A DNA stretch of 64,000 nucleotides, taken from the NCBI GenBank assembly GCA_009783145.1, contig WRHR01000002.1:34834-98833 (forward strand). Direction: 5' to 3'. Positions 19,890 through 21,585 of the stretch are shown here, in pieces. This stretch comes from Alphaproteobacteria bacterium. GTDB lineage: Bacteria; Pseudomonadota; Alphaproteobacteria; Rs-D84. A model generated the notes under the pieces. It saw only the letters and a program-made list of their open reading frames with translations. It searched no databases and was not told the DNA's origin. The position numbers and the translations under genes are program-made. The stretch's first letter is position 1; each line of letters begins with the position of its first letter.

Positions 19890-21585
19890 AAAGGAGGTGA
19901 TCCAGCCGCACCTTCCGGTACTGCTACCTTGTTATGACTTAACCCCAATCACCAACCCCACCGTAGCCGCCGTCCTCCTTGCGGTTAGACTAGCGTTGTC
20001 GGGTGAAATCGACTCTCATGGTTTGACAGGCGGTGTGTACAAGACCCGGGAACGTATTCACCGCGGCGTTCTGATCCGCGATTACTAGCAATTCCGACTT
20101 CATGCCCTCGAGTTGCAGAGGACAATCTGAACTGAGGCGATTTTTAACGATTGGCTCGGCCTTGCGGCTTCGCTGCGCTCTGTTATCGCCATTGTAGTAC
20201 GTTTGTAGCCCGACCCGTAAGAACCATGATGACTTGACATCATCCACACCTTCCTCCCGATTAACTCGGGCAGTCCCCTCAGAGTTCCCGGCTTTACCCG
20301 CTGGCAACAAAGGGCGTGGGTTGCGCTCGTTGCAGGACTTAACCTAACATCTCACGACACGAGCTGACGACAGCCATGCAGCATCTGTGTTCACACCAAC
20401 CGAATTGAAGAAAACCATCTCTGGTAATCGCGTGTGACATGTCAAGGGTCGGTAAGGTTTCTCGCGTAGCATCGAATTAAACAACATACTCCACTGCTTG
20501 TGCGGGTCCCCGTCAATTCCTTTAAGTTTTAATCTTGCGACCGTACTCCCCAGGCGGCATGCTTAACGCGTTAGCTTCGTCACTGGTCCCCCGAAGGAAA
20601 TCAACAACAAGCATGCATCGTTTAGGGCGTGGACTACCAGAGTATCTAATTCTGTTTGCTCCCCACGCTTTCGTCCCTCAGTGTCAGCAATGATCCAGAA
20701 GACTGCCTTCGCCATTGGTATTCCTTGTGATATCTACGGATTTCACCCCTACACCACAAATTCTATCTTCCTCTATCATGCTCCAGCCTGTCAGTATCTA
20801 TGGCAGTTCCGGGGTTGGGCCCCGGGATTTCACCACTGACTTAACAGACCACCTACGGACGCTTTACGCCCAGTAAATCCGAACAACGCTTGCACCCTTC
20901 GTATTACCGCGGCTGCTGGCACGAAGTTAGCCGGTGCTTTTTCTGTCGCTACCGTCATCATCGTCACGACTAAAAGAGCTTTACAACCCGAAGGCCTTCT
21001 TCACTCACGCGGCGTGGCTGGATCAGGGTTTCCCCCATTGTCCAATATTCTTAGCTGCTGCCTCCCGTAGGAGTCTGGACCGTGTCTCAGTTCCAGTGTG
21101 GCTGATCGTCCTCTCAGACCAGCTATGGATCATCGCCTTGGTAGGCCGTTACCCCACCAACAAGCTAATCCAACGCGGGCTCATCCTTCGCCGATAAATC
21201 TTTCCCGACCAATCAATTTTTCTGTTACAAACAATTGATTGGTCGGCGTATGCGGTATTAGCGTTCGTTTCCAAACGTTATTCCCCAGCGAAGGGCAGAT
21301 TCCCACGCGTTACTCACCCGTGCGCCACTGGTTGCCAATCAATTTTTCTGACGAAAAATTGATGGCAGAGTAAGAGAGTATAAGAGTAGGAGAGTAAGAG
21401 ATAACGAAATCTTTTACTCTGCAAACGCAAAGCGTTTGCAACACTCTTTTACTCTGCGCGCGAAGCGCGCGATACTCTCCAATCAATTTTTTGCAATGCA
21501 AAAAATTGATTGGCAACCCGTTCGACTTGCATGCCTAAGACCCGCCGCCAGCGTTCGTTCTGAGCCAGGATCAAACTCTCAAGTT
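19890..21585 (-). rRNA. rrs: 16S ribosomal RNA (about 1.7 kb; expanded V1)
   Basis: 5' AGAGTTTGATCCTGGCTCAGAACGAACGCTGGCGGC...; 3' ...GGATCACCTCCTTT. Confidence 0.9.
21331..21513 (-). other. About 150-nt expansion/IVS-like insertion in 16S helix 6 (V1) built from family C heptamer arrays and ccaatcaatttt...aaaattgattgg stems
   Basis: Between the conserved GTCGAACGG and AGTGGCG blocks lie about 183 nt versus about 30 in typical 16S; contains ttactctgcgcgcgaagcgcgcgatactctc nearly identical to the intergenic copy at 38895-38925. Confidence 0.75.

Follow-up and report, generated by a model that had tools for sequence, protein, structure and literature searches.

A modular palindromic insert in helix 6 of a 16S rRNA gene from the order Rs-D84, with relatives in other rRNA helices and in intergenic repeats

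How does a long palindrome come to occupy the first variable region of a 16S ribosomal RNA (rRNA) gene, what is it built from, and does it persist in the ribosome? These questions are raised by a 64-kb stretch of contig WRHR01000002.1, from an uncultured alphaproteobacterium of the order Rs-D84, which we analysed as a whole and refer to as the window. It contains one 16S rRNA gene, on the minus strand at 19890-21586, whose helix 6, in variable region V1 (21330-21519, minus strand), carries a composite palindromic insert, as judged from covariance-model alignment, the lengths found in relatives and predicted folding. A sequence-only reading had already pointed to this region; its coordinates and quoted sequences were correct, but it had read the plus strand, whereas the gene lies on the minus strand. 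We regard the helix 6 insert as probably belonging to the intervening sequences (IVSs) of bacterial rRNA, of which it would be an unusual, modular form. New here are the IVS-type build of hairpin, array palindrome and hairpin, the existence of solo and composite states in both rRNAs, a counterpart in a different helix of a second species, and the links to repeats found throughout the genome.

To delimit the insert, we aligned the gene to the Rfam model of the bacterial small-subunit (SSU) rRNA using cmscan; the loop of helix 6 comprises 168 unaligned nt, compared with 3 in the model. For comparison, we retrieved 80 loci from contigs representing one genome per species, by means of an alignment of homologs of the outer-membrane-type protein encoded upstream of the 16S gene. 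Of these, 33 were usable for helix 6, and in all of them the 16S gene starts just downstream of the same outer-membrane-protein gene, as it does in the window. The distance between GTCGAACGG and AGTGGCG is 188 nt in the window (21330-21517, RNA sense) and 15-29 nt in the 33 related species, while the span from CATGCAAGTCGA to ACGGGTGAGTAA is 200 nt against 27, 39 or 41 nt, from which we derive a net insert of ~173 nt. The copied unit, CCAAT...ATTGG (21335-21513, 179 nt), stands in place of the tetraloop end of helix 6. The large insert that had been claimed for V1 is thus real, and the proposed comparison with relatives leaves the window as the only one of 34 species with a long V1; the earlier figure of ~183 nt for the interval was close, whereas an expansion of "about 150 nt" was too low. 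The absence of extra sequence in relatives and the position at the tip of a variable helix are both what is expected of an IVS. The contigs with the closest homologs of the outer-membrane protein (P0122, P0125, P0136, and P0130) reach no further than the conserved 16S start and are uninformative on helix 6.

Misassembly of metagenomes typically affects repeats and rRNA genes, and a single operon is visible here, both of which would suit an assembly chimera or a decaying extra rRNA copy. We nevertheless consider this explanation very improbable. Two further contigs, assembled from different samples with different assemblers, span the insert with identical junctions: one from JGI 3300002504 (L004), 100% identical over 662 nt, and one from ENA ERZ27257320 (L001), 99.8% identical over 1078 nt, with two differences located far from the insert. 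An assembly artefact was ruled out on the basis of these two contigs. Moreover, a second species (L010, see below) bears a homologous insert, and the rest of the gene is fully conserved. The window 16S is a complete bacterial SSU rRNA (1519 bits, model positions 1-1533), insert-free relatives score 1519-1522 bits, and its 3′ end, GGATCACCTCCTTT, is intact, including the anti-Shine-Dalgarno end. Because the score equals that of insert-free relatives and the 3′ end is preserved, we take it to be a working gene and not a wreck.

The insert is a near-perfect palindrome made of smaller palindromes. In the RNA sense, with all features on the minus strand, the base of the helix pairs GGGTTG (21514-21519) with CAACC (21330-21334). 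Above it comes terminal hairpin A (21479-21513), formed by CCAATCAATTTTT (21501-21513), the loop TGCATTGC (21493-21500) and AAAAAATTGATTGG (21479-21492), followed by an 8-mer unit, AGAGTATC (21471-21478), and by a GC hairpin, GCGCGCTTCGCGCGC (21456-21470), recognized by a 22-nt pattern and by local alignment to an intergenic repeat. The 8-mer units AGAGTAAA AGAGTGT with the flank AGAGTAAAAGAGTGT (21441-21455) lead to an inner hairpin, TGCAAACGCTTTGCGTTTGCA (21420-21440), which is nested in the 5′ arm and has a 19-nt core, GCAAACGCTTTGCGTTTGC. In the minimum free energy (MFE) pairing, GAGTAAAAGAT (21409-21419) is the 5′ side of the apical stem and TTCGTT (21403-21408) the apical loop. The 3′ arm, delimited by TRF and the MFE pairing, consists of ATCT, four NNTACTCT units and G (21366-21402), and leads into terminal hairpin B (21335-21365), with CCATCAATTTTT (21354-21365), the loop CGTCAG (21348-21353) and AAAAATTGATTGG (21335-21347). 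Hairpin B is a direct repeat of hairpin A. The insert therefore carries two copies of a terminal hairpin, two small G+C-rich hairpins and 8-mer arrays, its modules including CCAATYAATTTTT and GCAAACGCTTTGCGTTTGC; TRF reports the array of the AGAGTANN family at 21367-21401 with a period of 8 and 4.4 copies. The MFE fold of the insert has -93.8 kcal/mol (z = -11.2), a value that none of 200 shuffled sequences reached, and its outer stem, ggttgccaatcaattttt/aaaaattgattggcaacc, has 19 uninterrupted pairs at the base. Complementary ends forming a long stem are another property of IVSs, and the long outer stem enclosing arrays and a GC hairpin had been correctly described before. If A and B instead form local hairpins on either side of the array stem, the resulting three-way fold differs from the rod by only 0.8 kcal/mol (-89.0 versus -89.8 kcal/mol), so that the RNA is predicted to adopt either a rod or a three-way junction at about equal energy.

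Inserts in rRNA genes may also be self-splicing introns or homing-endonuclease elements, as in the rRNA of giant sulfur bacteria and of bacteria of the candidate phyla radiation (CPR). As in CPR, we are dealing with a 16S insertion in a reduced-genome, probably partner-dependent organism (PMC11270868, PMC12306168). This explanation is nonetheless barely conceivable. No Rfam family was found in the insert, and no intron family even at E values of up to 1; it is crossed solely by mechanical reading frames of up to 68 aa, none of which is on record as a called gene, and it occupies a variable loop and not a conserved functional site, folding as a rod palindrome without a catalytic core. The best hit reached 22.7 bits against a gathering score of 96, and membership among group I/II introns or homing-endonuclease insertions was rejected. 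Exact look-ups of two reading frames inside the 16S gene returned nothing on record, and a BLAST search with the insert as query retrieved nothing from collections of plasmids and phages. We detected no terminator-like hairpin inside the insert on the rRNA strand; since none of its hairpins precedes a U-run on that strand, the insert should not terminate transcription.

Part of the insert has close kin elsewhere in the window. The 22-nt pattern, composed of the GC hairpin and the flanking TACTCT, has three matches in the window where none is expected by chance, including 38839-38860 (no mismatches) and 38898-38919 (one mismatch); the near-identity of the GC hairpin to an intergenic copy placed at 38895-38925 had been rightly noticed. 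Both of these lie in an intergenic palindrome of the AGAGTANN family with one GC hairpin per arm (38832-38926, unstranded; inverted repeat I10, with 46-nt arms that are 87% complementary), which folds with -76.5 kcal/mol and is the closest sequence relative of the insert core in the window. By local alignment, the 36-nt module AGAGTATC-GCGCGCTTCGCGCGC-AGAGTAAAAGAGT of the insert is identical to each of its arms at 34 of 36 positions (94%). Another array hairpin of the AGAGTANN family, detected by the inverted-repeat listing and TRF at 2534-2633 (unstranded; AAGAGTAG x4 / CTCTCTTA x3.6), shows local identities of 28/30 and 31/37 to the two arms of the 16S insert. Similar copies dispersed over one genome would be expected of miniature inverted-repeat transposable elements (MITEs), repetitive extragenic palindromic sequences or Rickettsia palindromic elements (RPEs). 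In contrast, the terminal hairpin CCAATCAATTTTT and the GCAAACGCTTTGCGTTTGC/GCAAACGC hairpin do not occur outside rRNA in the 64 kb or in the loci of the other relatives, and matches to GCAAACGCTTTGCGTTTGC are confined to the window 16S, its duplicate contigs L001 and L004, and positions 7503-7521 of L010. Because these two modules are found in rRNA only in the available sequence, the insert is a mosaic and more than a plain copy of an intergenic repeat; the idea that it stems from a mobile hairpin family thus holds for its core but not for its terminal and inner hairpins.

The terminal module recurs in helix 10 of the same gene. This helix, in variable region V2 (21205-21246, minus strand), bears a solo terminal hairpin, CCGA / CCAATCAATTGTTTGTAACAGAAAAATTGATTGG / TCGG, with a fold of -22.5 kcal/mol. 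It has 21 unaligned nt where the Rfam model has 3 and is 32 nt longer than the ancestral CCGGAAACGG, measuring 78 nt against 46-48 nt in the 29 other species, which have a plain short hairpin such as CCGGAAACGG. The arm motif CCAATCAATT../..AATTGATTGG occurs five times in the window, always in the 16S gene, with 0.38 occurrences expected, and the relatedness of the two stems that had been proposed from the sequence is therefore confirmed. The only other of 31 species with an insert in helix 10 is the Rs-D84 metagenome-assembled genome (MAG) Gx481_bin12 (L010; JAISAB01), whose 16S gene of 1677 nt has a normal helix 6 and a 187-nt composite insert in helix 10. The modules of this insert stand in the same order and orientation as those of the window helix 6 insert: at its 5′ end a hairpin A (CCAATTAATTTTT...AAAAATTAATTGG), then the inner hairpin GCAAACGCTTTGCGTTTGC (L010 7503-7521), identical over all 19 nt, arms made of AGAGTTRA 8-mers, and a hairpin B (TAATTAATTTTT-CTTCAG-AAAAATTAATTGG). 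The junction of the window solo hairpin is identical to that of the L010 composite. A consensus fold of the two composites contains 52 pairs, nine of them changed on both sides, including a C-G to U-A change in the outer terminal stem, although these covariation counts come from two composite sequences. The four terminal arms all show the same C-to-T / G-to-A difference between the window and L010. When JGI metagenome contigs were scanned once for the helix 10 junction ACCGCATACGCCGACCAAT, the sole match was fortuitous and lay in a leucyl-tRNA synthetase gene on a contig without rRNA.

A similar situation, but built from other sequences, was found in the 23S rRNA. In an alignment of 11 species, helix 25 is the only large 23S insertion site, and the window has there a composite insert of +142 nt (18353-18506, minus strand), composed of a hairpin A (18474-18503), a core with TTATAAG/CTTATAA 7-mer arrays (18390-18473) and a hairpin B (18356-18389) with the same GGCAATTTAATT arms. 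L010 carries at the same junction a solo hairpin with GGCAATTTAATT arms (+27 nt), and another relative, L009, has +261 nt of unrelated sequence at the same spot; the eight remaining relatives have GAGCCGGTTTTCCGGTGA and no insert. Helix 25 is thus occupied in 3 of 11 species, and the two states are paired in reverse, the window being solo and L010 composite in helix 10, and the window composite and L010 solo in helix 25.

Could the insert simply have grown in place, by slippage that made the arrays and hairpin-templated repair that symmetrized them, the inserts of the two species being independent or inherited vertically? Each array hairpin of the genome has its own repeat unit, which suggests local generation and not a single master element, the arrays found inside coding genes barely change gene length, and neither a transposase nor a target duplication was found in the frames scanned. 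However, an identical 19-nt hairpin, 13-nt terminal arms and the same module order are present at two helices in two species, and the 34/36 identity to the 38.8-kb locus also requires copying. From the identical 19-nt hairpin, the shared arm motifs and the module order we conclude that DNA was copied between helix 10 and helix 6, convergence being impossible, as the earlier proposal of copying between sites had anticipated. The helix 6 copy is most simply derived from the window lineage's own helix 10, because it has the same C/G variant, whereas L010 has T/A. Growth in place is, in our opinion, unlikely, and as a sole explanation the sequence comparison largely refutes it.

Vertical descent was examined with rRNA phylogeny. 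The sites that group the window with L005 in quartets numbered 32 in the 16S and 17 in the 5′ part of the 23S, with the same outcome when L007 was used, as opposed to 7 and 7 for a grouping with L010. L010 pairs with L009, which has a plain helix 10, and the window and L010 were sisters in none of 200 bootstraps. The possibility that they are sister species sharing the helix 10 insert by descent was thereby ruled out. The inserts are therefore distributed sporadically and off the phylogeny, as is typical of IVSs (1/34 species in helix 6, 2/31 in helix 10 and 3/11 in helix 25), the carriers of the CCAAT unit not being sisters, and for this reason we believe that the element has changed helices and probably lineages as well. 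Descent alone would imply that the ancestral loop, CCGGAAACGG, was restored exactly, time and again, in the non-carriers; horizontal spread is the better reading of these sequences, whether the element moved on its own or rRNA segments recombined between co-resident species. A recombination tract around helix 10 is weakly suggested by 16S positions 325-506, where the identity between the window and L010 (97.3%) exceeds that between the window and L005 (91.3%), the relation being reversed at positions 507-731.

We propose that the insert would be DNA copied between hairpin loops, here from helix 10 to helix 6, and that it would exchange core modules with the array hairpins of the genome. Since hairpin B directly repeats hairpin A, the core would be lost through recombination or slippage from one to the other, and a composite would collapse into a solo hairpin of the kind observed in helices 10 and 25. 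The element may have spread between lineages by its own mobility or with segments of the rRNA gene, and selection would tolerate it only in solvent-exposed variable loops. Several observations weigh against such movement. The tree is based on rRNA, loosely backed by one fast-evolving protein; a Pfam scan revealed no transposase domain in 43 reading frames of the window and five of L010; and neither a target-site duplication nor other mobility machinery was seen. Terminal inverted repeats (CCAATCAATTTTT/AAAAATTGATTGG) are present as in a MITE, but the nucleotides flanking the inserts (TG/CA in helix 6, A/T in helix 10) form complementary, not direct, pairs; the distal stem of each of the three helices, moreover, has been replaced instead of being cleanly interrupted. 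Given this replacement and the missing target duplication, template switching or recombination between hairpins fits better than cut-and-paste transposition.

We favor assignment to the IVS class since the insert is absent from relatives, the sites are the classical ones (16S helices 6 and 10, 23S helix 25), the ends form a stem, the distribution is sporadic and no open reading frame (ORF) is evident. The likeness to 16S IVSs had been claimed before and is apt on the grounds of the long end stem, the absence in relatives and the sporadic occurrence. It had been coupled to a hint at a Caedibacter-like lineage, which did not survive analysis, as proteins and 16S place the host with Candidatus Enterousia and Rs-D84. 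The insert of Caedibacter caryophilus, a symbiont of Paramecium, was reportedly found by Springer and colleagues in 1993 (PNAS 90:9892) to be absent from the mature rRNA, leaving a fragmented 16S. To our knowledge, no link of that IVS to genome-wide repeats or to a second helix has been described. According to the mention of it in PMC11909080, C. caryophilus is, like our host, a host-associated alphaproteobacterium with an insert (~190 nt) in the 5′-terminal 16S; it belongs to Holosporales and not to Rs-D84, and the likeness, which extends to the window insert in that the latter has no evident ORF, is one of description.

Closer parallels in site and build exist in other groups. The 16S IVSs of Helicobacter and Campylobacter share with the inserts described here the helix 10 site (nt 175), an end stem, A+T richness, the lack of an ORF, a sporadic distribution and a short homology to the 23S IVS of the same organism (PMC3335488). 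In H. fennelliae, the 16S IVS at position 175 has an end stem of 24 bp and the 23S IVS one of 21 bp, both proposed as recognition sites of RNase III, and the two share a 26-bp region (PMC3335488). These IVSs differ in being 150-355 nt long, irregular, and devoid of tandem-array arms or duplicated terminal hairpins; solo/composite pairs and intergenic relatives have not been reported for them. The 23S IVSs of Salmonella, Yersinia, Coxiella and Leptospira, located in helices 25 and 45, have been proposed to spread horizontally and are viewed as selfish (Burgin et al., 1990; PMC8708148; PMC4990558). They use helix 25, as does the window 23S (18353-18506), but those of Coxiella and Leptospira carry an S23p ORF, whereas the window insert has none. 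In 23S IVSs, RNase III excises at the end stem without religation, and the fragmented rRNA is functional (PMC8708148).

Among dispersed repeats, the insert also recalls other systems. The short tandemly repeated repetitive (STRR) sequences of heterocystous cyanobacteria are tandem heptanucleotides abundant between genes, as are the arrays here. We know of no description of STRR sequences as paired inverted arrays forming long hairpins, nor as rRNA inserts. RPEs and the GC clusters of yeast mitochondria land in intergenic DNA, in frame in protein genes, and in structural RNA genes. Like the repeats described here, they are short palindromic repeats of reduced alphaproteobacterial or organellar genomes (PMC2635572, PMC4478555). 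RPE families have a conserved consensus, while in the window the 7/8-mer unit differs between hairpins, which have only part of their modules in common; moreover, in the coding genes of the window the arms flank a pre-existing conserved motif and do not form a single contiguous insert. An excess of heptamers in heterocystous cyanobacteria is recorded in PMC4692102.

What becomes of the insert in the RNA depends on maturation of the operon. The 16S gene is the first of a 16S-tRNAIle-tRNAAla-23S-5S operon on the minus strand, established with Rfam and tRNA confirmation, with the 23S at 16139-19031 and the 5S at 15880-15994 (both from Rfam). Duplex and cofold predictions place the leader half of a ~20-bp processing stem at 21756-21776 (minus strand), with its partner in the trailer at 19828-19850. 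Leader/trailer stems are the usual RNase III substrate in rRNA maturation, and we infer that the enzyme acts on this one. Since such a normal stem flanks the 16S, maturation of the RNase III type is plausible, and by analogy we lean towards excision of the insert by this enzyme. It would be transcribed within the pre-16S rRNA, RNase III would cut, without religation, the perfectly paired A/U-rich duplex that extends over 19 bp plus 12-13 bp, and the product would be a 16S made of a ~70-nt 5′ piece and a ~1.45-kb 3′ piece held together by base pairing, an arrangement reported for C. caryophilus.

Alternatively, the insert might be retained in the mature 16S as an expansion segment, forming a ~60-bp rod or a three-armed extension of the helix 6 "spur", with helices 10 and 25 likewise extended, which would amount to ~350 nt of extra rRNA gained by stepwise accretion of hairpins. 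We give this a lesser, though substantial, chance. The three sites are surface loops of naturally variable length, the insert is in the only 16S seen, with a score equal to that of insert-free relatives, and nine compensatory pairs between the two composites preserve the structure; palindromic copying would, however, yield compensatory changes without selection on the RNA. Similarly, the three-way fold, which co-transcriptional folding would favor, has no duplex longer than 16 bp, but the rod, in which 19 perfect pairs and a further 12-13 stack, is a classic substrate of RNase III, and the 16S and 23S IVSs in the papers cited are described as removed by RNase III, or their end stems have been proposed as its sites. 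The 14-bp solo hairpins of helices 10 and 25 look too short for efficient cleavage and are probably kept in mature rRNA. Baker and colleagues are said to have found, in 2003, that probes directed at the inserts bound to those in the 16S of endosymbionts of acid-mine protists; tags inserted into helix 6 are, in addition, tolerated by E. coli. Excision, which we still favor, is a guess resting on analogy and duplex length, and several points tell against it: RNase III was not found in the part of the window frames that was scanned; the duplexes of the three-way fold, of 14-16 bp, would be poorer substrates; probable retention of the solo hairpins would mean that the ribosome tolerates the terminal module; and helices 6, 10 and 25 are also sites able to keep extra RNA. 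Whether excised or retained, the insert is expected to be selfish or neutral and not adaptive.

The host could be placed by its proteins and 16S. Its CTP synthase and the outer-membrane-type protein encoded at 22158-23060, upstream of the 16S gene, are identical to proteins of an NCBI MAG named "Alphaproteobacteria bacterium" (locus tag FWF97_); the gene for the latter, which has no Pfam match, is present on five public contigs, two of which extend into the 16S. The next relatives of these proteins belong to MAGs from animal guts named Candidatus Enterousia, "Rickettsiales bacterium" or "Alphaproteobacteria bacterium", and the best 16S identities to relatives are 93-94%, with insert columns excluded. 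Judging by the naming of their MAGs, the closest loci (Gx481, Pcl387, Cc175, and Lab288) presumably derive from termite-gut studies. One of the loci, L075 (JBKSMR01), is the Enterousia MAG described in PMC12306168, which places Enterousia in the order Rs-D84, with genomes below ~1 Mb and a probably partner-dependent lifestyle, while the NCBI taxonomy lists it as Alphaproteobacteria incertae sedis. From these matches, the host is a member of the Enterousia-related, reduced-genome gut alphaproteobacteria of the order Rs-D84, many of which inhabit the guts of termites and ruminants. A stretch of 4.6 kb separates the outer-membrane-protein gene of L010 from its 16S (2676-7282); the interval measures ~0.6 kb in the window and ~0.5-0.7 kb in the majority of the relatives that were checked. 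Array hairpins are found in the additional DNA of L010, as are two long frames (of 727 and 273 aa) that match no Pfam family. On the other side of the operon, beside the 5S gene, 13287-15192 (minus strand; low GC, 0.37-0.43) encodes an RloB-like protein and an AAA_21 ATPase, an AbiEii/OLD-type pair that is a candidate defence module.

The arrays are not confined to rRNA. The window contains 42 tandem arrays with a period of 7 or 8, mostly in inverted pairs, with folds of -23 to -76 kcal/mol and a unit of their own in each case. The density of 7/8-mer arrays, 0.66 per kb in the window and 1.22 per kb in L010, is the highest among 85 sources, most of the others having none, so that arrays are densest in just those two genomes that have composite rRNA inserts. 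A long hairpin with arms of tandem 7-mers is present in the majority of intergenic spacers, and its units vary (AATTAGC, AATGACY, AGGTAGG, AAAGAAT, ATTTACG, and others); such hairpins are located at 95-245, 1025-1125, 11405-11520, 25600-25745, 30370-30530, 36925-37095, 49440-49590, 53300-53470, 55670-55755, 59250-59335, and 60570-60670. Some array hairpins exactly fill the stop-to-start gap between adjacent genes of a cell-wall gene cluster, and a literature search revealed no description of spacer hairpins with tandem 7-mer arms. Inverted arrays also lie in the spacer upstream of the 23S (19057-19166, ACGCGAG / CGCGTCT), and L010 has similar ones on both sides of its 16S (6757-6823 and 9025-9144) and before its 23S (9773-9842). 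In protein genes, in-frame inverted 7-mer arrays were unexpectedly found in ksgA/rsmA (33380-33511), murG (52750-52864), and acrB (47945-47978). Those of KsgA flank a conserved motif (KSEEWRVKS...NLPYNIGTELL...LHSSLSTLHS), as do those of MurG (MDDGRRMTDDG...TGLPVR...SSIIHHPSSII), and in the KsgA of two related MAGs (P0279 and P0281) both of these variable positions are occupied by peptides, resembling MTDDG and SSII.HPSS, respectively. These coding-gene arrays resemble RPEs with the arms split around existing sequence.

Other repeats and one gene of the window deserve mention. The conserved palindrome TGTCCATTATAATGGACA occurs five times (155-192, 23457-23494, 25651-25688, 30441-30478, and 52158-52195), several times in the loop of an array hairpin, and may serve to bind a protein. 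Inverted copies of 60-90 nt at 28503-28592, 31134-31223, 35708-35767, and 46314-46435 belong to a second, G+C-rich repeat family (CACCCCTCCACAGGAGGGGAAC), which is distinct from the 7-mer hairpins. The frame at 3136-3456 (minus strand), within the ORF at 2632-3456, matches PF05635, "23S rRNA-intervening sequence protein" (E = 5e-31), as a free-standing gene bracketed by the near-complementary arrays AGGTTGG (3086-3118) and TACCTCC (3460-3490); members of this family were first recognized in Leptospira and Coxiella, where their ORFs lie within IVSs of the 23S.

The origin of IVSs and their arrival at the same few helices in unrelated bacteria have never been settled. The insert described here can be traced in three ways, to the repeat hairpins of its genome, to its counterpart in a different helix of the L010 16S and to the solo hairpins that may be its footprints, which offers a testable picture of birth, movement and decay. 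The interest of the locus may even lie more in the genome-wide system of array hairpins than in the insert alone. A broader and, in our estimate, rather doubtful proposal is that a transmissible hairpin-generating process in some reduced-genome Rs-D84 writes inverted 7/8-mer arrays into spacers, variable parts of protein genes and rRNA loops, the rRNA inserts building on "landing-pad" hairpins and hopping between helices and species; were this true and the inserts retained, they would be bacterial expansion segments growing by accretion. If retained, the insert would in any case provide a rare bacterial model of expansion segment growth. In practical terms, inserts of 173 nt in V1 and 32 nt in V2 would distort amplicon lengths and hinder reference-based reconstruction of the 16S in this little-known gut lineage.

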